A stretch of DNA of 64,000 bases, taken from NCBI GenBank assembly GCA_017853715.1, contig JAFMIZ010000001.1, positions 14,679 through 78,678 of the forward strand, written 5' to 3'. Below are positions 1 to 53,286 of this stretch, one piece after another. A program made the translations under genes and the position numbers. The stretch is from Pedosphaera sp. (GTDB taxonomy: Bacteria; Verrucomicrobiota; Verrucomicrobiia; Limisphaerales; DSYF01). The first letter of the stretch is position 1, and each line of letters starts with the position of its first letter. The notes below the pieces were generated by a model. The model ran no database searches and was not told the origin of the DNA. It was given only the letters and a program-made list of their open reading frames with translations.

Positions 1-507
1 GATCAGATCGTTCGCTATGAGACGCAGGGAACCACTACGCTGGGCGCAGTCCTGCTGACCAATGACACCGACGTGGATGGCGACCTGTTGAGCATGACGG
101 AAGTCTCCAACGCCACACCGCTTGGGGCGACCCTCCAATTCACCAATGGAGTCGTCAGTTATCAGCCTCCTCCTGGTGACGCCAATGTAGGCAGCCTCGA
201 ATACATCATCATCGACAGCCAAGGCGGCTCGGCCACTGGCTTGGTTTCGGTAGCGGTCGCCCCGGACCCGCCGGGCACGGACGAGCTCAACATCACAGCC
301 AGCCCCGGACCGTCGATTCATCTCACGCTCACCGGACAGCCCGATTTTATATACACCTTCCAATTCACGGACGCGCTGCAGCCCTTCGGATGGCAAAACT
401 GGCTGGTTACCAATGCCAGCGCCGGTGGCGAAGTCACCGTGACGGATGAAACAGCTGCCGGCCCCACGAACCGGTTTTATCGCACCATTCGCGGCATCGC
501 CCCTTAA
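1..507 (+). CDS. C-terminal part of a large cadherin-like / Ig-like repeat surface protein (5' end outside window)
   Basis: Frame 1 is open from base 1 to the TAA at 505-507. The translation carries a bacterial cadherin-like repeat signature: LLTNDTDVDGDLL ... VSYQPPPG ... GSLEYIIIDSQGG ... VSVAV. Confidence 0.6.
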   Translation, partial: DQIVRYETQGTTTLGAVLLTNDTDVDGDLLSMTEVSNATPLGATLQFTNGVVSYQPPPGDANVGSLEYIIIDSQGGSATGLVSVAVAPDPPGTDELNITASPGPSIHLTLTGQPDFIYTFQFTDALQPFGWQNWLVTNASAGGEVTVTDETAAGPTNRFYRTIRGIAP

Positions 508-816
508 GTCAATTCCTCCTGCCGGAAAGCTCCCGCAAGCGGGTCGTTGGTGCCGCAAGATCCCCAAACGCTTTGTCGGCTGCCCCTATGCAAAAAGGCG
601 GCGCCGCTGCACGCCGCCCTTCCTTGAGCATGGGCTGAGGCACAAAGACATTCTAGACATCTGCTAATCCTTAACCGGAGGCCGGTCTCCGACCCGTCCC
701 CGACTCGCGACAGTCCATCAACATTCCGGGGCCGGGACCGGCGCTCCAATTGCAGCTACACTCGTCCTAAATGCCCAGCCCCTATACCTCTTTTGGTGAT
801 TAGCGGCTAAACAGCC

Positions 817-3411
817 TCACTCAAACCACAACTCTCCGCCTTGCGCCACAGTCTTCACCGTGTCGCCTGGCTTGATCTCGCCGTTGAGCAACTTCGTCGC
901 GAGCGGATTGAGCAGCACATCCTGGATCGCCCGCTTGAGTGGACGGGCGCCGAATTGCGGGTCGTAACCCTGCTTCGCAACCAGCTTCTTCGCTTCGGGC
1001 GTCAGTTCCAGCGTCACCTTCTGCTCGGCCAGCCGTTTGACCACCGTCCTGAGCTGCACGTCCACAATCTCCCCGATCTGCGCTTCGCTCAGGCTGTGGA
1101 AGATGATGATGTCATCCACGCGATTCAGAAACTCCGGACGGAAATGTGTCTTCAGCTCCATCTTCACCACGCGTTCCAATTCCGCCTCATCCTTCAACGA
1201 GGCCGGACCCTTGGCATAGAATTCCTGGATGATCGGCGACCCGATATTGCTCGTCATGATGACGATGGCGTTCTTGAAATCCACCGTCCTCCCCTGCCCG
1301 TCCGTCAATCGCCCGTCGTCCAGCACCTGCAACAGCACGTTGAACACGTCGTGATGCGCCTTCTCGATCTCGTCGAACAACACCACGCTGTAAGGCCGCC
1401 GCCGCACCGCCTCGCTCAATTGCCCGCCCTCCTCATAACCTACGTAGCCGGGCGGCGCGCCCACGAGGCGCGACACCGCATGCTTCTCCATGTATTCCGA
1501 CATATCGATGCGCACCATCGCGTTCTCGTCGTCGAACAAAAACTCCGCCAACGCCCGCGCTGTTTCGGTTTTGCCGACGCCGGTGGGTCCGAGGAAAATG
1601 AATGAGCCGATCGGGCGATTTGGATCCTGCAAACCACTGCGCGAACGCCGCACCGCGTTGGCCACAGCCGCAATCGCCTCCTGCTGACCGATGACACGCT
1701 TCTGCAACTGCGCCTCGATCTGCACCAGCTTCTCGCGTTCGCCCTGCAACATCTTCGACACCGGTATGCCCGTCCACGCCGCCACCACCTCGGCGATCTC
1801 CTCCTCCGCCACCTCCTCATGCAGCAAACGGTTGTCACTCGGCTTCTCCTTCAGCAACTTCTCCGCGGCCGCCAGCTTCCGCTGCAAGTCCGGGATCTTG
1901 CCGTATTGGATCTGGGCCGCCGCATTCAGGTCGCCATGACGTTGCACCTTCTCCAACTCCGACTTCGCCTCCTCCAGCTGGCCGTTGATGATGCCCACCG
2001 CATTGATGGACGCCTTTTCGTTCTGCCACTGCGCCTTCATCGCCGTGGACTTCTCCTTCAAGTCCGCCAGCTCGCGTTCCAGCCTCGTCAAACGCTCCCT
2101 CGATGCCGCGTCTTTCTCGCGCTTCAACGCATTCTGCTCGATCTCCAACTGCATGATCTGCCGCTCTAGCTGGTCGATCTCCGTCGGCATGGAATCCAAC
2201 TCCATGCGCAAGCGCGACGCCGCCTCGTCCACCAGGTCGATGGCCTTGTCCGGCAGGAAACGTTCAGTGATATAACGATTCGAAAGTGTGGCCGCCGCGA
2301 CGAGCGCATTGTCCTGAATCCGCACACCGTGATGCACTTCGTAACGCTCCTTGAGTCCGCGCAGGATGGCAATCGTCGCCTCCACGCTCGGTTCGGTCAC
2401 CTGCACCGGTTGGAACCGCCGCTCCAACGCCGGGTCCTTCTCGATGTATTTGCGATACTCATCCAGCGTGGTGGCGCCCACGCAACGCAACTCGCCCCGC
2501 GCCAGCTGCGGCTTGAGCATGTTGCCCGCGTCCACCGCGCCCTCGGCCTTGCCCGCGCCGACAATCGTGTGCAGCTCGTCAATGAACAGGATGATCTTCC
2601 CCTCGCTTGACGTCACCTCCTTGAGGAACGCCTTCAGGCGATCCTCGAATTCCCCACGATATTTCGCGCCGGCGATCATGGACCCGATATCCATCGCCAC
2701 CAACCGCTTGTTCTTGAGCGACTCCGGCACGTCCCCGCTGACAATGCGCCGCGCCAGCCCCTCGGCAATGGCCGTCTTGCCCACGCCCGGCTCGCCGATG
2801 AGGACCGGATTATTCTTCGTGCGCCGCGACAAGACCTGCATCACGCGCCGGATCTCGTCGTCGCGCCCGATCACCGGATCAATTTTGCCCTGCCGCGCCA
2901 ACGCCGTGAGATCCCTGCCGTATTTCTCCAACGCTTGAAACTTGTCCTCCGGATTCTGGTCGGTGACGCGTTGATTGCCGCGCAACTCCACCAGCGCCTT
3001 CATCAAGGCCTCGCGACTCAGTCCCGCCGAAGACAACGTTTTTTTAAGCGACCCGCCCGCCGTCTCCACGATGCCCAGCAACAGATGCTCCGTGCTGATA
3101 TAGTCATCCTTGAGCTTGCGTGCCTCGGACTCGGCCGCGTCGAGCGCCTTGCGCAACGACTGACCCACGAACGACTCCGCGCCGCCCTGAACTTTATGGC
3201 GCCGGGCCAGTTCCTGGTTGAGGTCTGCGGTGAGTTTGGGGGTGGGCACGCCGAGCTTCTCCAGCAACTCCGGCACGAGACTCTCCGGCTGCTGGGTCAA
3301 CGCCAGCAGCAGATGCTCGCAATCCAGTTCCTGATGCGAGAGTTCGCGCGCAATGTTCTGCGCCGCCTGCAACGCCTCCTGCGCCTTGATAGTCAACCGA
3401 TCCATTTGCAT
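817..3411 (-). CDS. clpB: ATP-dependent disaggregase ClpB
   Basis: Two AAA+ modules with Walker [10 protein letters not shown] and GPTGVGKTE, a long coiled-coil middle domain, and N-terminal Clp repeats ([17 protein letters not shown]). The conserved N-terminus begins [14 protein letters not shown], so I prefer the ATG at 3411 over the ORF-track start at 3459. Confidence 0.95.
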
Positions 3412-3509
3412 AACACTTGAATTTAATTTAACCGCAGATGGACGCAAATGAACCGACATCCAGCCCCTTCCCCGCCCATCATCGGTAGGGACGCCACGCT
3501 GCGGCGTTC

Positions 3510-3539
3510 ACATGGGTTCAATCAGCAATCAACTTTCAA
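3510..3539 (-). promoter_or_regulatory. Speculative sigma-32-like heat-shock promoter upstream of clpB
   Basis: On the minus strand, TTGAAA (3539-3534), a 17-nt spacer, then CCCATGT (3516-3510), about 100 nt upstream of the clpB ATG. It resembles CTTGAAA-N13-15-CCCCATNT, but the spacer is long and the consensus comes from Proteobacteria. Confidence 0.2.
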
Positions 3540-3977
3540 CCATCAACTAGTTAACACGCACCATGCCAACGAAGACGAAGTGAAATAGCCCGGAATTGCG
3601 TGTTTCTCCCGCAAAGTGTGCCATCACCTGCGCCAATGAGTGTGCCACGCCATTGGAGAGTGGAACAAGTTGCCTCATGAAAGGCTCCCAAATCGTGAGG
3701 TGATAGCGTCAGCCGTTCGAAACCCTGCTCCTCCCATCTCGGAGTGGGTCTTTTGCTCTCAAAGGAGTTGTGTGCGTCAGGTTGAGCAAATGGTTTCATG
3801 GTGGCCACGAGGTAAAACGAGGCGGCACGGACGGCCTAGCGGGCCATCCATACCCGCCGTTTCAACCAGCGCCCCGCCCGTGCTTGGGAGCCTTTTGCTA
3901 CGCAGAATTCTGGTTCATCAAGGAATTCCGGGGGATGTTTCGGGAGGATGAAGTTGCCGCGGACGGGACGACGGGGT

Positions 3978-4548
3978 GGTAAAAGCGGTAAAGCCCTGAA
4001 GAATCCACCCCCGAATCGACAGGAAGCTAAACGTGTTCCTATTTGACTAATATGGAGCTACTTACAAACAAGAAATCCACCACCAGAGCCCTCCAGTGGC
4101 TTTACTTTTCCTTTACCTTTGCTTTACCGAATTTCGATTTCTCGGCGGGTCACCCGGTGATGTCACCCTTTGACACTTTAAACCCCTGAACGGTAGCCGC
4201 CAGCGTGAGCCAGCTCTGGCTTTTCCCCGCGTTCAGGTGGAGCGGACTCACGTCCGCTGGACCAGGTCACCTGCTGACGTGACCCTTTGATACCACTTTC
4301 TGCGGCACACACGGTATCACACGCTGCACTTTACCTTTGCTTTACCGCCCTGCGAATTGCCGGAATCGCTGCTGTCTCTGCGGGCCACCGGGCGGGACGG
4401 TGGCAGCGCCACAGGCGAAGGTAACGACAGGCGGGACGCCGGGGCCCCTCAGACCCACGAACTGAGAAGCCTTCCCTACCCTGCAGGCAAGAGGCTTTAC
4501 CTTTGCTTTACCTTTTCTTTACCCATTTCCGATTTCTCGGCGGTCAAT
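3978..4548. repeat. Cluster of 11-bp-phased CTTTACC heptamer arrays with associated conserved boxes, in a gene-free region
   Basis: The exact 18-mer CTTTACCTTTGCTTTACC occurs at 4111-4128, 4329-4346 and 4495-4512. Heptamer starts are 4100/4111/4122, 4329/4340 and 4495/4506/4517, all at an 11-bp period. An inverted pair GGTAAAAGCGGTAAAG lies at 3978-3993. A shared box TTTC(C)GATTTCTCGGCGG(G)TCA lies at 4131-4152 and 4525-4546. Related inverted-repeat boxes lie at 4148-4176 and 4265-4293. Confidence 0.85.
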
Positions 4549-5357
4549 GTGCGTTTTGACGGGTTTTGGCGGGGGATGCCTCGGGTGCACGGAAACGACA
4601 TCCCGGTATTTTCGGACCACGTCTCACTGCCCAAGCCCGCACCGCGACCGGAGACTCGTGCTCCGATGCTCGACTGGCTCAACCCACCCCACCGGCAAAT
4701 CCACCCCCATCACCCAAACTTCAAGTTGAGAAACTGAACGTGAATTTAAAGTAGTTTCAAACCCGGAGGATGACAAGTCCCGGGCCTCTCGGAATTCCGG
4801 GAGGAACCAAAATTCCCTTTCCGCCTACTTTATTGCTGAACAGAGCAACCAACCCAATAGACAGGTCGCCGGGAAAAATGTGCCGACGAACTGAACGAAC
4901 GTCTGCGCTTGGAACTCGTGGATGAATTAACCGCGCAGCAATGAGATGGCGCCGGCAAGGACGATGATGGCTGCGCTCCTTTGGCTGCCTCGGCAAGCGG
5001 CCCTGAACGGGCCAATCCCATAACCTGCAATCTGTCCAACAGCCTCGGTGGCGGTTGGCTTGCATCCGACATTATCCATAAGCGTAGGCGCCTCTCTATG
5101 ATCTGGCAGGAATCGCTTCGTCATGGCGAATCAAGGCTCCGTAACATGCGCCCCGGTATGCTCCGAACGCGTCAACGTCCTCAGGATAAGAGGCGCACCA
5201 GAATGGCTGGTTGAGTAAAAGAAGGGCTAAGACGCCCAACCCGAGCATTGCCTACAAGCGGAAGGCACGCGCAGGGTCCCAATGAAGAAAATGAACCGTA
5301 GCAGCCCGAAAGTGCGCCTTTGAAGAATGCGGATCTGGAGTGCTAACGCCTAACCGC

Positions 5358-6713
<1,356 letters not shown>

Positions 6714-8704: not shown

Positions 8705-9478
8705 TCAGTCACGCTGCCACTCAGGTTTGTTGGAAAACACCCACCGATAATATTCAGTCCGCTGCAATTGGCTCGCCGCTGCTTCGTCCAAAAAGACTTT
8801 CACGGTGGGATGCAACTGCAGGATGGAGGCCGGGCAGATCGCGGTAAGGGGGCCTTCCACCGCTTGGGCGACGGCTTTCGCCTTTTGCTCACCAAACGCA
8901 AGCAGAACAATTTGCTTCGCATCCATGATGGTGCCGATGCCCATCGTGATGACGTGATACGGGACCGCGCCTTCGCTGCCAAAAAAGCGGGAATTATCGC
9001 GACGCGTCTGCTGAGTCAGCGTCTTTATGCGAGTCCGCGAAGCGAGCGAGGAGGTAGGCTCGTTGAATCCGATGTGCCCATCCGTGCCGACACCCAGAAC
9101 CTGCAAATCAATTCCCCCGGCTTTCTTGATCTCCTTTTCATAACGGGCACAAAACTTCGGCACGTCCTTGGCCATTCCGTCAGGGATGTGGATGTTTTCG
9201 GGATCAATCTTCAAATGACGGAACAAGTTTTCCCGCATGAAGCTGTGGTAGGACTGCGGATGGTCCGGGGCCAATCCCACGTATTCGTCCAAATTGAAGG
9301 TAGTCACTTGACCCCATTCGAGTTTGAGACCGATGAGAGCACGATACAGCAGCAACGGCGTGCTGCCGGTGGCTAGCCCGAGGACTGAGTCCGGTTTGTC
9401 GCGAAGTTGCCGAGCAATCACTCGCGCGGCCACCGAGGTGGCGACTTCAGGCGTGGGTTGAATGATAATTTCCATCAA
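8705..9478 (-). CDS. nagB: Glucosamine-6-phosphate deaminase
   Basis: 257 aa with blocks GLATGSTPLLLY, FNLDEYVGL and GVGTDGHIGFNEP. The start overlaps the stop of the upstream PIG-L gene by 4 nt (ATGA). Confidence 0.9.
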   Translation of the reverse strand: MMEIIIQPTPEVATSVAARVIARQLRDKPDSVLGLATGSTPLLLYRALIGLKLEWGQVTTFNLDEYVGLAPDHPQSYHSFMRENLFRHLKIDPENIHIPDGMAKDVPKFCARYEKEIKKAGGIDLQVLGVGTDGHIGFNEPTSSLASRTRIKTLTQQTRRDNSRFFGSEGAVPYHVITMGIGTIMDAKQIVLLAFGEQKAKAVAQAVEGPLTAICPASILQLHPTVKVFLDEAAASQLQRTEYYRWVFSNKPEWQRD

Positions 9479-10332
9479 ACTCTCCCCAAACGCGCCGCCA
9501 GCTTGCCGCGCACGTCCGAATTGAATTGCTCCACGTAATCGCAGACATACCCGACAATGTCTCGCGATTCGTTGACCACCAGCGGGGTAAGGTCCATGCC
9601 AAAAATGATGCGCTCGGCCTGATCGCTGGCGTGAGACTCGAAGAAGGTCGCATTGGCCGCGCGGCGTCCCAAGGTGGCCAAGTCATAGCGCTTACCGCCC
9701 GCGATCTGTGAATCAAAGATTCCATTCAAAGCCGCCGCCAAATTGTCACGGCCACTCACATTCATGACCACCTTGGCGGCGTCCGCCAGCCAGTCAAGGT
9801 CACGCCAAACCTCGCAACCGATCACCCTTCCGGGCCGCTGCTCCGGAGGCATTTCACGCAAAGCCTGCAGCGAGGCCACCACCACTCCGATGTGCGTTTC
9901 GTGCTTGTCCGCCGGATTGTGGGTGTAAACCACCTGCGGTTGGGTGGCAGCCAGGATTTGGGCGAGGTCACTCTTCAACGCAACGTCAGTCGGACTCTTG
10001 ACGATGCTGCTGGGGTGATCCAACTGAATCATCACGCCGTATTGTCCGACGATTGCCGCGGCATCCTGTTCCTCACGCCGAACGCCCATCATCTGATCGT
10101 CGGTAAAATCTTTGTAGGGACCGGTGCGGGAACTGCCCGCCCCGTTGGTGCAGGTGACCCCGCCGAACCAACGATCGGGACGCTGGTAACACTCCAGAAT
10201 GCCGTGGAAGGCCATGAACTCCAGGTCGTCCTGATGCGCACCTATGCCCAAGTGCGTGACGCGTGCCAGCGCTTCCGTTTCCGGCGCTTGGTCGGGAACG
10301 AACAGACGGGCATTGGGTTGACGAAACTTCAT
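9475..10332 (-). CDS. PIG-L / LmbE family deacetylase (putative N-acetyl-amino-sugar deacetylase)
   Basis: 285 aa. Carries the LmbE-type metal-site motif GIGAHQDDLEF and a downstream HNPADKHETH. Translationally coupled to nagB. Confidence 0.8.
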   Translation of the reverse strand: MKFRQPNARLFVPDQAPETEALARVTHLGIGAHQDDLEFMAFHGILECYQRPDRWFGGVTCTNGAGSSRTGPYKDFTDDQMMGVRREEQDAAAIVGQYGVMIQLDHPSSIVKSPTDVALKSDLAQILAATQPQVVYTHNPADKHETHIGVVVASLQALREMPPEQRPGRVIGCEVWRDLDWLADAAKVVMNVSGRDNLAAALNGIFDSQIAGGKRYDLATLGRRAANATFFESHASDQAERIIFGMDLTPLVVNESRDIVGYVCDYVEQFNSDVRGKLAARLGRV

Positions 10333-11868: not shown

Positions 11869-12909
11869 ATGAAGCTCAAGCTCAGCGCGCTCGACCTGCA
11901 CCTGATCAACCCTTGGAAGATTGCCAGCTCTAAAGGCTCCAGCACTCACACCGTCGTCATTTTCGAGCTGGCCGACAAAGATGGGGTGAAAGCGATTGGC
12001 GAGGCCGCCCCTGCCAGCACGTATCAGGAGACCGCCCACGCCGTCATCCAGTTTTGCACCGGGCTGGACACAACGCGCCTTTCGTTTGCGGACGTTCCTG
12101 GTTCGATGGCTTGGGTGAATTCCTTGCCGGGCATCCCGGCGGCGGCACGTTGCGGATTAAATCTCGCGCTGCTGGACGGCGCAGCGAAACGAGCGGGCGT
12201 TCCGGTGTATGATCATTTGAAACTCGGTTTTCGCGAACAGCAGCACGTCACCTCATTCAGCATCGGCATAGACACACCGGAAATCGTCCGCGCCAAAGTA
12301 TTGGCGGCAGCCAGCTATCCCGTGCTCAAGCTGAAGGTGGGCGATCCGCGCGACCACGAGAATTTTGCCGCGCTTCGCTCCGTTGCTCCGAACAAGCCCG
12401 TGCGGGTGGATGCCAATGAAGGGTGGAAAACCAAAGAGTACGCACTCGAGATGTTGGAAGACCTCGCTCACGACGGCCACATCCAGTTCGTGGAGCAACC
12501 CATGCCACGCAACACACCGCCGGCAGATCTGATCTGGTTGAAAGAACGCACTCCCTTGCCCCTCTACGCCGACGAATCCTGCCACGCTGTGCGCGACATC
12601 CCCCATTGCGCCGAATGCTTTCACGGTGTGAATGTAAAGCTCATGAAGACCGGCGGCCTCAGCATGGCCTGCGACACCCTGCAAGCGGCACGCAAAGCGG
12701 GCTTGATGACGATGGTCGGCTGCATGATTGAGACTGGCCTACTCATCAGCGCCGCCGCCCACCTCGCGGAGCTGGCCGACCATCTGGACATTGACGGAAA
12801 CCTGCTGGTCAACAATGACCCCTTTGCGGGCGTGACTGCGGAGCGCGGAATACTTTCCTTTGGCTCAGCGCTGGAGAAAACCGGATTACGAGTCAGCCCG
12901 AGAGGCTGA
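11869..12909 (+). CDS. Dipeptide epimerase (L-Ala-D/L-Glu epimerase-like), enolase superfamily
   Basis: KxK motif (VLKLKVG), metal ligands in VDANEGW / VEQP / ADES, and the second catalytic Lys in VKLMKTGG. I prefer the ATG at 11869 (MKLKLSALDLHLINPWK). The ORF-track start at 11638 would overlap the divergent ROK gene. Confidence 0.8.
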   Translation: MKLKLSALDLHLINPWKIASSKGSSTHTVVIFELADKDGVKAIGEAAPASTYQETAHAVIQFCTGLDTTRLSFADVPGSMAWVNSLPGIPAAARCGLNLALLDGAAKRAGVPVYDHLKLGFREQQHVTSFSIGIDTPEIVRAKVLAAASYPVLKLKVGDPRDHENFAALRSVAPNKPVRVDANEGWKTKEYALEMLEDLAHDGHIQFVEQPMPRNTPPADLIWLKERTPLPLYADESCHAVRDIPHCAECFHGVNVKLMKTGGLSMACDTLQAARKAGLMTMVGCMIETGLLISAAAHLAELADHLDIDGNLLVNNDPFAGVTAERGILSFGSALEKTGLRVSPRG

Positions 12910-13737
12910 TGACCACTACAAATTCTCGGGGAACAATCGGCGCGTGCGACTCGTCCGTGCCGCGAAAGAAACTCTCAAGGTATTTGGACTGGTTGACGAA
13001 CGCAGCATGACCATCCGCATGCACGATATTCCACCCTCCGTTCCGTGGTTGTCGCCGGGGTCTGGATAATTCTCATTCTTGCGGGTGGAATCTGCAGCGT
13101 TCCTGTCATCTGCATCGTAAATCACCAAGGTGCCTGAGGGTCTGGGCGCGCGCCCGAGCATATTGAGAGTTCTAAAATTGGTATTGTTCAACAGCTATGT
13201 CCACGACGCCACGCTGCGCTCCGTCTTGAGAGTCACGGCACCATAGTATCCAGCAACTTCGTGACTGTGGTCGTCTTGACCAATCTTTCCTGCAGCATTG
13301 TCAACCAAGTCGGCGACGAACGATTTGCTGGCGGCATTGATACGGTCGGGGCAGTTGGGAACACCTGATGTATTTGGTCCGCCGAGCGTATAGGGGCATA
13401 CGTAAGTATGCCGGACAACCAGGGAAATTGATTGCACTCAGCCGCGCCTCATTCTTGGTGGCGGGACAAACGAATGCTCTGAGCGCGGGCAAGTAATTTG
13501 GATACAAGCAGTTGATCTCATCATCCGTATATGCACCGGTAAGGGCCGCCGCGCATCATCCACGGCAAACATCAGGCTGCCCAGCCCCATCCGCCGACCA
13601 TTTTTCAGACATTGGATCTGTTTGGCTTTAACCTTGGCCCGTCCCAGTGCGGGAAGCAGCAGCGCTGCAAGAATGGCGATGGCAACCAGCAACTCAATGA
13701 GGGTGAAACCTGAACAGCGTGTTCACGACTTTTTCAT
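12893..13737 (-). pseudogene. Decayed prepilin-type (DUF1559 / H-X9-DG-like) pseudopilin gene
   Basis: ATG AAA AAG TCG then an in-frame TGA at 13725-13723, followed in frame by [26 protein letters not shown] (prepilin N-methylation motif). The remaining homologous pieces lie in different frames: [16 protein letters not shown]; YVCPYTLGGPNTSG; NHGTEGG then NIVHADGHAAFV. Confidence 0.8.
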
Positions 13738-13821
13738 CCGGCGCCAAAGCCCCAACACACGACCCCCTGCCTGCAACTGGCTTTCGGCAGCCATCAAAGG
13801 GGATGAAATCCACAGGCCAAC

Positions 13822-17838: not shown

Positions 17839-17914
17839 GGGGTCGTAGCTCAGTTGGTAGAGCACCACAATGGCATTGTGGGGGTCAGGAGTTCGAATCT
17901 CCTCGGCTCCACCA
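17839..17914 (+). tRNA. tRNA-Ala (anticodon GGC), CCA encoded
   Basis: Hand-folded cloverleaf. Acceptor GGGGTCG/CGGCTCC with the G3:U70 alanine identity pair; D arm GCTC-AGTTGGTA-GAGC; anticodon arm CCACA-ATGGCAT-TGTGG (GGC); T arm AGGAG-TTCGAAT-CTCCT; 3' ACCA. Confidence 0.9.
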
Positions 17915-52372: not shown

Positions 52373-53286
52373 ATCAACGAAGATTCATTCTCAACTTCCT
52401 CATTCCTATTGCAGCGCTGCTGGCGATCGGCTGTGCCTCATGCGTCGGTTCAACCAACAGTTTTTCGGCCTACGAGCGCCCGGTGATGACTTGGGTGCCG
52501 CGCTACGCTGCCAACAATTCCCAGCAACGATTATCGGAGACTTACTCCGGAATCGGGATGAAGGACGCGCTCACCCATGTGGGACTGCAATTCTGGACAC
52601 CGACGAACAAAGGCGGCCTCATCCGGACCGGTAAGGGCGCAACTACCAGCGACGCTGTAATCAAATCCTTTCGTGATTGGTGCCGAACCAACAGCGTCCG
52701 TGTTTTGCTCTGCGTTTACCAAATCGGCGACTGCGAGCTGGCGCTCTCTGCCTTCAAGGATAATTGCGGCACCTTCATCGAATCACTTCTAACCGAGGTC
52801 AACCGACATGACTTGGACGGCGTGGACATATACTTCGAAGGCCGCGGACGACTCAACGAGGACAAAGAAGGCTTTCGGCCATTTCATCCGCCAGCGGGCG
52901 ACAAGATTACACAAAGACAACCGGCACCTCACCGTGGATTCCTATGCCTACGTTTGGAACGCCCCCAATCAAACTTGGTGGCCCAATCTCTTCCCGCACG
53001 TGGACGGCTTGACCACGATGGGCTATGAGCAGACCGGTTTCCGAGACACAATTGGCGGGCTACGCATCCCAAAAGAAGGCCGCCGGAGAGTTCGCCAGCA
53101 AACTCATGATCGGATTACCCTTGCATAAGGGCGAGTGGCGAGGCACTAGTCTGGACGAGCATTTGAAGTGGTCGTATCGGATGGAGAAGTAGCGTGGCTT
53201 TCTGGGACGCTCAGCTGAAATCCGCGAATTGGCGCAAACCAGATGTCTGGAAATCGCTGCAAACAGTTAAATCAACGCCTGAGTAG
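52369..53286 (+). pseudogene. Decayed GH18-like (chitinase-fold) lipoprotein gene
   Basis: Lipobox LLAIGC. The GH18 catalytic block is degraded to LDGVDIYFEG (expected DGxDxDxE). Homologous segments continue in other frames: AFGHFIRQ...LTVDSYAYVWNAPNQTWW...MGYEQTG; KLMIGLPLHKGEWRGTSLDEHLKW; VAFWDAQLKSANW. That implies at least 3 frame changes. Confidence 0.7.

Follow-up and report, generated by a model that had tools for sequence, protein, structure and literature searches.

The window analysed here is a 64,000-nucleotide stretch of Pedosphaera sp. DNA (GenBank assembly GCA_017853715.1, contig JAFMIZ010000001.1, positions 14,679 to 78,678 of the forward strand). In this window a gap of about 1.95 kb (3412-5357) lies between clpB and a gene that was identified via Pfam PF03825 as a nucleoside:H+ symporter, and within the gap the heptamer CTTTACC (GGTAAAG on the clpB strand) is repeated in short phased arrays, which are the subject of this study. 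An earlier note on the sequence had described a gene-free region of about 1.9 kb beginning at 3460. Both strands were read and no coding signal was detected, which bears out the description, while the beginning of the gap was corrected to 3412; the most likely start of clpB is ATG 3411 (MQMDRLTIK...), and the database homologue begins two codons later. The per-codon log-likelihood was about 0 or below in nearly all open reading frames (ORFs) of the gap, compared with 0.18 for the median long ORF, the exception being one ORF of 33 codons with a gene-like score of 0.19. No Pfam domain was found in the seven gap ORFs searched. A decayed protein gene across the repeats, which had been considered as well, was without support from the codon scores, from Pfam and from tblastn searches of the window with the helix-turn-helix (HTH) protein described below, its partner protein and their neighbours, which left no remnant. 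Other long gaps had been taken to be nearly absent from the window. According to our list, which rests on a crude gene call, larger ones exist at 12685-13821 and 52373-53242, yet only 3412-5357 is truly non-coding: the former is occupied by the 3' end of a gene of the enolase superfamily and by a gene of prepilin type that is possibly disrupted or simply low-scoring, and the latter by a single gene reading across three frames, probably a frameshifted pseudogene. The gap itself consists of two parts, a clpB-proximal block (3412-3690) and a lineage-specific mosaic of short repeat modules (Table 1).

CTTTACC begins at 4111/4122, 4329/4340 and 4495/4506/4517, with an exact period of 11 bp. All three phased arrays of the earlier note are present, except that the unit at 4100, listed there as CTTTACC, reads CTTTACT and has one mismatch. 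The 18-mer common to the arrays, CTTTACCTTTGCTTTACC, was found exactly three times, and five copies were counted when up to three mismatches were allowed, against 0.00 expected from 100 shuffles. Tandem Repeats Finder reported a period of 11 at 4100-4128 and 4494-4523. In the whole 64 kb, CTTTACC is the sole 7-mer with three copies spaced exactly 11 bp apart, and 7 of its 10 copies lie inside the gap. Chance does not account for these arrays. Arrays 1 and 3 sit in a 54-nt direct repeat (4095-4148 and 4490-4543, 87% identical); module 2 is 80% identical in register to module 1. The two related GGTCACC boxes (GGTCACC..CTTTGAYAC, 4148-4176 and 4265-4293) were also recovered and are 83% identical to each other, and the oppositely oriented pair at 3978-3993 exists, albeit with a period of 9 bp and an imperfect first unit. 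Read on the clpB strand, the window arrays consist of a degenerate inverted unit, 18 or 19 bp, and then GGTAAAG plus four A-rich bases two to three times. The inverted units of modules 1 and 3 read GGTGACC and ATTGACC on this strand, and they are degenerate in all three modules. A layout like that bound by winged-helix regulators, which had been pointed out before, holds as a matter of geometry, in that 7-8 bp cores are phased at 11 bp by an A/T-rich linker; this geometry supports a putative function of the protein-binding type.

Table 1. Features of the gap between clpB and the symporter gene (strand left empty where none is assigned).
Feature	Position	Strand	Remarks
clpB promoter/leader block	3412-3690	-	aligned by eye with the clpB upstream regions of L119/L120, L121 and L122; contains CTTGTTCCAC, three TGGCACA-type boxes (3648-3616), TGGCATGG-N4-TGTT (~3568-3553), GTTGATGGTTGAAAGTTGAT words, GTTGATGG words and a CCGTGTTCATC-type leader ahead of ATG 3411
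Terminator-like hairpin	3824-3854	-	13 pairs, then a T-run; between repeat mosaic and clpB promoter block
Left arm of 26-nt inverted repeat	3905-3930		with GGAATTCC palindrome
Reversed unit pair	3978-3993	+	GGTAAAA-GC-GGTAAAG, 9-bp period; orientation opposite to the three modules
Module 1	4095-4154	-	units 4100-4106 (CTTTACT), 4111-4117, 4122-4128; 19-bp spacer box 4129-4147; degenerate inverted unit GGTCACC 4148-4154; architecture matches family
Hairpin-rich spacer	4148-4319		two GGTCACC..CTTTGAYAC boxes; stem-loops 4186-4238, 4241-4258, ~4288-4319
Module 2 (degenerate)	4329-4363	-	units 4329-4335, 4340-4346; spacer-box remnant
Module 3	4490-4548	-	units at 4495, 4506, 4517; 18-bp spacer box 4524-4541; degenerate inverted unit GGTCAAT (ATTGACC on clpB strand) 4542-4548
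Second phased word family	4553-4573		GTTTTGACGG twice, 10-bp period (GnCAAAAC on clpB strand)
Right arm of 26-nt inverted repeat	4790-4815
Two terminator-like hairpins	5224-5307	-	5293-5307 and 5224-5242, just past the symporter gene stop codon; consensus scan

Other genomes, one per species, were scanned with the pattern CTTTACCTTTKCTTTACC; the loci compared are designated by L-numbers. At least 114 loci with CTTTACCTTTKCTTTACC were obtained, and among the matches listed about 35 came from Verrucomicrobia metagenome-assembled genomes (MAGs). Five of these ~35 carry another taxon label yet the same element, probably as a result of mis-binning. Several MAGs harbor many copies, namely, among the matches listed, at least 11 loci in CAWHCL01, at least 5 in CAIQEI01 and at least 4 each in CAIXBQ01 and CAYUGC01. 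The search of related genomes for the 18-mer, which had been proposed earlier, thereby led to a dispersed Verrucomicrobiae family. In the GGTAAAG direction its members show an inverted unit CTTTACC, 17-19 bp, and GGTAAAG plus four A-rich bp two to four times. The modules lie between genes, and within a genome their copies are almost identical. The AAATTTCGATTT-type spacer of the window is shared with L014, L010, L096, L086 and L111, which form one subfamily with it. In CAWHCL01 the repeated unit spans about 120 bp: the inverted unit and two units are followed by a 45-bp core (TTTTGAGTGCTCTATCAACCACTTACGACGATT), by some 12 GC-rich bases that vary and by two further units; the whole is nearly invariant in 10 copies at 9 loci (one was extracted twice), with unrelated flanks. 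The same unit is found in L132, which stems from a different sample, and other MAGs have core variants of their own. Since sequence outside the repeats is common to the copies within a genome, duplication or mobilisation is indicated rather than independently evolved operator sites. Literature searched for the motif and for verrucomicrobial repeats gave no account of this module family. In a sister element (L045, L051 and L011, same MAG) GGTCAAG units are combined with a matching CTTGACC inverted unit and the same 45-bp core, so that a change in the direct units is matched in the inverted one. Another family of phased words, G(T/C)GACAAAA or GCCAAAA with a period of 10-11 bp and 3-5 units, was seen in L006, L028, L045, L093, L097, L102 and L103 as well as in L020 and L090, usually at a distance of 100-250 bp from the GGTAAAG modules in the downstream direction, toward the gene. 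These GTTTTGACGG-type words form longer arrays at the related loci and usually stand on the gene side, whereas the two-unit version of the window stands on the opposite side of module 3.

The CAWHCL01 unit resembles the putative mobile promoters, which were described as conserved sequences of 50-100 nt upstream of non-homologous genes (PMC3488235). Their definition asks for 50 nt or more with 80% identity or more in front of non-homologous genes of one genome, and the ~120-bp module of CAWHCL01, with more than 80% identity and a fixed orientation upstream of non-homologous genes, falls under it. Unlike in putative mobile promoters, no promoter consensus was found in the module, the link to an HTH gene described below has no counterpart in the concept, and the definition is silent on mechanism.

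The position of the modules relative to genes was analyzed at 35 loci with home-made codon-based gene calls; some of these loci are near-duplicates (L032/L078; L006/L020/L054). In 26 of 31 cases (p = 2e-4) the nearest downstream gene in the GGTAAAG direction ran the same way as the module, and its start was mostly 220-800 bp from it. Co-orientation amounted to 83-88% for downstream genes 1-3 and to only 42-60% for upstream genes 1-3. A replication-strand effect ought to bias upstream and downstream genes alike; the modules therefore mark the start of transcription units and point into them. The genes found downstream have unrelated housekeeping roles (smpB, nuoA, dapA, kdsA, pyrD, glyS and a recC-like gene). 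The window agrees with this pattern, its modules being aimed at clpB with module 1 at a distance of 689 bp.

To which extent the arrays belong to clpB was assessed by comparison with related clpB loci. ClpB homologues annotated as Verrucomicrobiae are 84-92% identical; the loci compared were L119 (ClpB 92% identical to that of the window; L120, with the same value, is a duplicate), L121 (91%) and L122 (88%). With their clpB upstream regions the window shares only the proximal ~280 bp and nothing farther is kept, and each relative looked at has its own set of genes upstream of clpB. No CTTTACC arrays were found within 10 kb of clpB in L119, L120, L121 and L122, and the arrays therefore lie outside the conserved clpB control region. 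The 3412-3690 block is not part of the repeat mosaic. Judged from these alignments, clpB would have no need of the arrays, because its own promoter block is nearer and is conserved without them. The absence from close relatives, which had been named as a sign of simple junk, thus holds at the clpB locus, while the presence of the motif elsewhere means that junk is not implied. Within the conserved block (window 3553-3690, clpB strand; L119 ~9700-9950, L121 ~9640-9800, L122 ~9700-9960) the TGGCACA boxes are about 13 bp apart and TGGCA(C/T)GG-N4-TGTT lies another 55-60 nt on; CTTG(T/C)TCCAC is also held there. TGGCA(C/T)GG-N4-TGTT resembles the -24 element of sigma-54 promoters, without the canonical -12 GC. 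The stretch 3553-3690 may be the heat-shock control region for clpB in this clade. Words with a period of 9-10 bp (ATCCGTGTTCATCTGTGTCCATCCGTGGTT, TTAGCGTTCATTAGCG, TTCGTGAAATTCGTG, GCGTTCTTTGCGTTC), often ending in GGTTAAAAA, fill leaders and intergenic regions of these Verrucomicrobiae, as in the window at 3412-3470 and in L119-L122 ahead of the clpB ATG; Rfam gave no match for the window copy (3412-3470).

The differing synteny upstream of clpB in every relative would fit an inert leftover, in which dead repeat copies were kept by chance at a symporter–clpB rearrangement junction. Degenerate units in modules 1 and 2, the degenerate inverted units of all three modules, a subtype that is unique to this locus and the variation or breakage of the region in assemblies of other samples point the same way. 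On the other hand, the 18-mer is identical in three arrays and modules 1 and 3 are 87% identical over 54 nt including the spacer box, which suggests recent duplication or constraint, and the family follows strong rules of orientation and position in other genomes. We regard an inert leftover as having a low probability.

In their layout the arrays come close to binding sites of OmpR/PhoB-family response regulators, and a Pho-box-like regulon motif that switches on clpB or a non-coding transcript was considered. The cores of 7-8 conserved bp, the A/T-rich linker of 3-4 bp, the 11-bp period and the two to three tandem copies reproduce exactly the layout of sites bound by PhoB and by cyanobacterial SphR. 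Among textbook examples the SphR Pho box is the closest; there CTTAACCT is repeated three times with a 3-bp linker, and this consensus differs from CTTTACCT at a single position (PMC1906773). Pho boxes, however, stand in for the -35 element of particular promoters and are directed at the gene under control, whereas in the window and in most members of the family the CTTTACC strand runs toward gene ends. A -10 element was not found at the expected distance, there is no downstream gene on the + strand, and a query with a PhoB sequence gave no PhoB-like gene in the window. In addition, the neighbours of the modules are unrelated housekeeping genes (smpB, nuoA, dapA, kdsA, pyrD, glyS, tuf, gyrB, rnpA, pgk, rplB) and include no pst or pho genes, the 45-bp non-repeat core and the inverted unit common to the copies are unlike independently evolved operators, and clpB of the relatives lacks the arrays. 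A response-regulator box at this locus is thus unlikely, and a promoter box of the PhoB/OmpR type was not borne out. CTTTACC arrays with a spacing of about 11 bp do occur in Lachnospiraceae/Oscillospiraceae MAGs, where, as judged by eye, they follow directly behind the ends of OmpR-type regulator-like genes (L105, L107), a point in favor of such boxes, or precede an apparent transporter gene (L089, L107). These Firmicutes arrays would represent ordinary use of the heptamer as a regulator box.

Strikingly regular was the association of the modules with a small protein gene. At all six loci of this kind that were found through the motif (L032, L062, L078, L084, L086, L111), the module is preceded by a conserved ORF of about 136 aa on its own strand, with 19-41 nt between the end of the ORF and the module. 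Retrieval with the protein as the sole query gave further loci (L129, L130, L131, L132 and L138; L133 and L134 are the same locus as L132), and all of them contained GGTAAAG arrays 35-110 nt past the stop codon, in L131 as GGTATGG variants. The linkage extends in total to about 10 independent loci (13 fetched). As control, no arrays were found in about 68 kb of non-redundant clpB-locus DNA (L119, L121, L122) and in the other 62 kb of the window. With 832 members of 74-99% identity, the protein family is found mostly on very short contigs (most of them below 3 kb). A weak HTH_23 signal was detected, and in the model a three-helix HTH is followed by a helix of 40 residues, a further helix and a disordered yet conserved acidic tail (EIPADEYHEQVQDW). 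The predicted recognition helix K31-Q42 is invariant over 32 homologues, as is the GGTAAAG unit across genomes. Behind the module, most loci have a gene for an all-helical protein of about 260 aa with an arginine-rich N-terminus and no known relatives. The predicted local distance difference test (pLDDT) scores of the AlphaFold models of the two proteins were 77.5 and 72.

Together these parts form a cassette of 1.7 kb with the order promoter, HTH gene, GGTAAAG module and 260-aa protein gene. It is found twice in one 610-kb contig (L129 5678-7393 and L138 4118-5769), the copies being 88% identical over 1,719 bp; one precedes pgk-tpi-secG and the other tRNA-tuf-secE-nusG-rplKAJL. Elsewhere cassettes precede rnpA-yidC, gyrB-gyrA, rplB and following genes, and glyS. 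The ends are sharp, the left at a promoter-like site TTGACA-N17-TAAGTT and the right at the stop codon of the partner gene, and neither inverted repeats nor a target duplication were found at the ends of the two copies.

Taken together, these results suggest that the arrays of the window are orphan copies, three in one orientation beside a single reversed remnant, of an interspersed promoter-side repeat family, whose phased units act as a putative protein-binding array, a reading to which we give about an even chance. Each module would then be a binding array in which the 11-bp period aligns consecutive GGTAAAG units along the same helix face, which would let a sequence-specific protein bind cooperatively and assemble into a larger complex of higher order; an oppositely oriented subunit would occupy the inverted unit, some 2.4 helical turns off. 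The best candidate for the binder is the 136-aa protein with its N-terminal HTH and predicted long coiled coil, the gene of which is always followed by a module. The modules probably spread by duplication or mobilisation, since copies are nearly identical, lie upstream of unrelated operons and keep a fixed orientation. At operon heads they may be tolerated, as purely selfish DNA, or used as upstream activating or boundary elements. The window copies would have been gained in this lineage as orphans. Of the options in the earlier note, a mobile element stands in part: a link of the arrays with mobile or repetitive DNA is likely.

Several observations weigh against this reading. Neither the HTH gene, nor the partner gene, nor remnants of them were found in the 64-kb window by tblastn. 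The HTH protein has no significant sequence or fold match to characterised DNA-binding families, and adjacency is not proof that it recognises the module. The orientation result comes from a home-made gene caller and in part from near-duplicate loci, and the 220-800 bp to the downstream gene are long for a classical activator site. A canonical promoter in or beside the modules was not found by scan and manual inspection of both strands; the scan of the gap returned one weak promoter-like site and no excess over shuffles. A long-spacer promoter of the MerR type (TTGACC/TTTACC, 19-20 bp, TAAAGA) was considered and dropped, the linked protein having no similarity to MerR. Finally, many intergenic copies per genome were seen in related MAGs, while the window copies are present at this locus alone. 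A metagenome scan with CTTTACC-N6-CGATTTCTCGGCGG returned only the same locus from two other samples (99+% identity), and no second copy of the array region was found inside the window; the window subtype is not dispersed in the scanned metagenomes, and any mobility in the source genome is therefore putative.

A wider interpretation is advanced tentatively and is, in our opinion, rather unlikely as a whole: the arrays may belong to a protein-repeat system of the Verrucomicrobiae with the 1.7-kb two-gene cassette and its own promoter as core. The cassette would be kept in at least two copies per genome before core operons, and its internal module would have seeded dozens of orientation-fixed copies. 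Such a system might be a mobile element of a new kind with no recognisable transposase, or a clade-wide upstream activator of housekeeping operons, comparable to Fis sites at stable-RNA operons. In either version the window would contain orphan sites upstream of clpB.

The nature of the linked proteins was further analyzed by database searches. Foldseek against the PDB returned no match below E = 0.8 for either protein, PDB sequence profiles and PADLOC gave no match, and NCBIfam, Pfam and PHROGs yielded only sub-threshold HTH or IS3-type matches. The nearest, non-significant relatives of the HTH protein are small terminases (top Foldseek rows) and the N-terminal OrfA part of IS3 transposases (E = 0.024). 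Phage small terminases are oligomers with an HTH and a coiled coil that recognise a pac site near their own gene. With IS3 OrfA and these terminases the linked protein shares an N-terminal HTH followed by long helices and a location next to its own putative site. Against this, no match is significant, neither a transposase catalytic ORF nor a large terminase gene adjoins the HTH gene, and its partner is the all-helical 260-aa protein with no known relatives.

The weak likeness to the HTH/leucine-zipper part of IS3 OrfA would also fit an origin of the arrays as transposase-binding sites within a single insertion. The entire array-bearing segment is bracketed by a 26-nt inverted repeat that matches at 22 of 26 positions, a value reached by 0 of 60 shuffles (the best had 20), so that 3905-4815 (911 bp) might be a non-autonomous element resembling a miniature inverted-repeat transposable element (MITE) with these arms as termini. 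All arrays lie between the two arms and the region is missing at the clpB loci of relatives. It is also fragile in assemblies: contigs of other samples with the identical symporter gene stop at 4752-4758 (L001, L003, L004), those coming from clpB stop at 4695 (L135/L128) and 4389 (L127), and only the window and L002 span the gap, which is suggestive of an insertion, deletion or rearrangement in some strains or of an assembly break caused by the repeats. These breaks, however, are not at the arms. A target-site duplication was not found at the arms, where the flanks differ, and there is no second copy in the window. The array-box pattern, which is internal and covers neither the arms nor the 911-bp element, was found in metagenomes only at this locus. 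Moreover, the GGAATTCC palindrome in both arms inflates the match, and related genomes repeat a module of ~120 bp rather than an element of ~900 bp bounded by inverted repeats. A MITE-like insertion is therefore considered improbable. The stops at 4389, 4695 and 4752-4758 are reached from both sides by contigs of five other assemblies from the same population.

Phased direct repeats with an inverted copy are also the classic arrangement of iterons and operators, as in plasmid Rep-iteron origins, and parC of plasmid R1, the site of ParR, consists of ten 11-bp repeats. The cooperative binding by a small protein from an adjacent gene that is proposed here for the modules would be analogous. The window arrays might accordingly be viewed as iterons of an integrated origin or as a centromere-like partition site in a plasmid or phage remnant. 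Phage contigs L123 and L124 contain iteron-like arrays of three GGTAAAG, and a viral scan for the triple array returned four unrelated iteron-like arrays. Distant homologues of the HTH protein (28-34% identity) are encoded on four small Firmicutes plasmids, in one case beside a gene for a ParA-type ATPase; the neighbours and nearby tandem repeats of these plasmid homologues were uninformative. Yet iteron systems occupy one locus per replicon beside rep or par genes, whereas the modules are many, dispersed and located at operon heads, with a dozen chromosomal copies in related genomes and without an ATPase or Rep partner. No rep, par, integrase or mobile-element gene was found in or beside the gap. 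Cumulative GC skew falls monotonically over the window without a turning point, and DnaA-box 9-mers within one mismatch amount to one in the gap without any cluster (GC content 51-63%). The segment 3900-4820 had no match in plasmid DNA, and no homologues of the HTH protein were found in phages. A replication or partition site, one of the options raised earlier, is hence extremely unlikely.

A further proposal was that the region encodes one or more structured small RNAs, with the repeats as RNA motifs such as protein-titrating GGUAAAG repeats. The long non-coding stretch does contain several stable hairpins: the stem-loops described before are present at 4241-4258 and at 4186-4238, the latter one base away from its former placement, and 4145-4294 folds as single strand with z = -3.2, none of 200 shuffles being equally stable. 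The hairpin at 3824-3854 on the clpB strand, which was detected by the consensus scan and is stable in folds of larger segments, may act as a terminator, and the minus-strand fold of 3810-4560 (751 nt) reached z = -2.1. Against this, the plus strand gave z = -1.1 and a candidate transcript of 288 nt (4099-3812) z = -0.7, values that are unremarkable. The CTTTACC arrays themselves are unstructured, with no hairpin potential (z -0.4 to -1.3), and a period of 11 bp is a property of the DNA helix, not of RNA. Rfam gave no match for 3300-5500 even at E ≤ 1; at gathering score the only match in the whole window was a tRNA-Ala at 17839, with no tRNA in the gap. As the other copies of the window locus are 99-100% identical, covariation was out of reach. 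Encoded structured RNAs are consequently very unlikely.

The modules were also compared with repetitive extragenic palindromic sequences (REPs), bacterial interspersed mosaic elements (BIMEs) and REPtrons. In the REPtron concept a repeat copy is physically tied to the gene of a dedicated protein (PMC3733652). In related MAGs the modules share with these systems a high-copy intergenic family, concerted evolution within the genome and a dedicated linked gene. REPs, however, are imperfect palindromes of 20-40 bp with a GTAG or CGTC tag that are recognised as single-strand hairpins, whereas the modules are phased direct repeats with neither tag nor hairpin potential, and unlike the REP-associated tyrosine transposases (RAYTs) the linked protein lacks an HUH/Y1 domain. 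BIMEs lie mainly at the 3' ends of genes; the modules, in contrast, are found at the 5' ends of operons.

If the orphan-copy reading is correct, the promoter-side intergenic DNA of a common, uncultured soil and freshwater clade would be shaped by a repeat family with a dedicated DNA-binding protein. The 7-bp site at 11-bp period and the 136-aa protein would be a testable pair, which would allow one to ask how interspersed repeats spread and whether operon control outside the model Proteobacteria makes use of them. In practice, the modules break short-read assemblies, as HTH contigs are mostly below 3 kb and several contigs stop in the gap, and they are easily taken, wrongly, for regulon motifs or origins. 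The consequence for the window itself would be modest, given that the conserved promoter block of clpB is nearer and array-free in relatives.

Other repeats and genes were observed near the modules and cassettes. GTAG-tagged REP-like hairpins (GTAGCAGCCGACGTAAGGAGGCTC ... GAGCCTCCTTACGTCGGCTGCTAC) occur in L122 (~9200-9290) and L006 and just upstream of modules in L029/L077/L082/L090; they constitute a repeat family of their own, present alongside the modules. In L129, two genes for 313-aa Y1 transposases (PF01797; 803-1744 and 3433-4374) lie a few kb from one of the HTH cassettes. In L138 the HTH gene is frameshifted near its 3' end, and a Cas9-like protein of 1,110 aa with HNH_4 and RuvC_III matches is encoded directly upstream of the cassette (498-3830).

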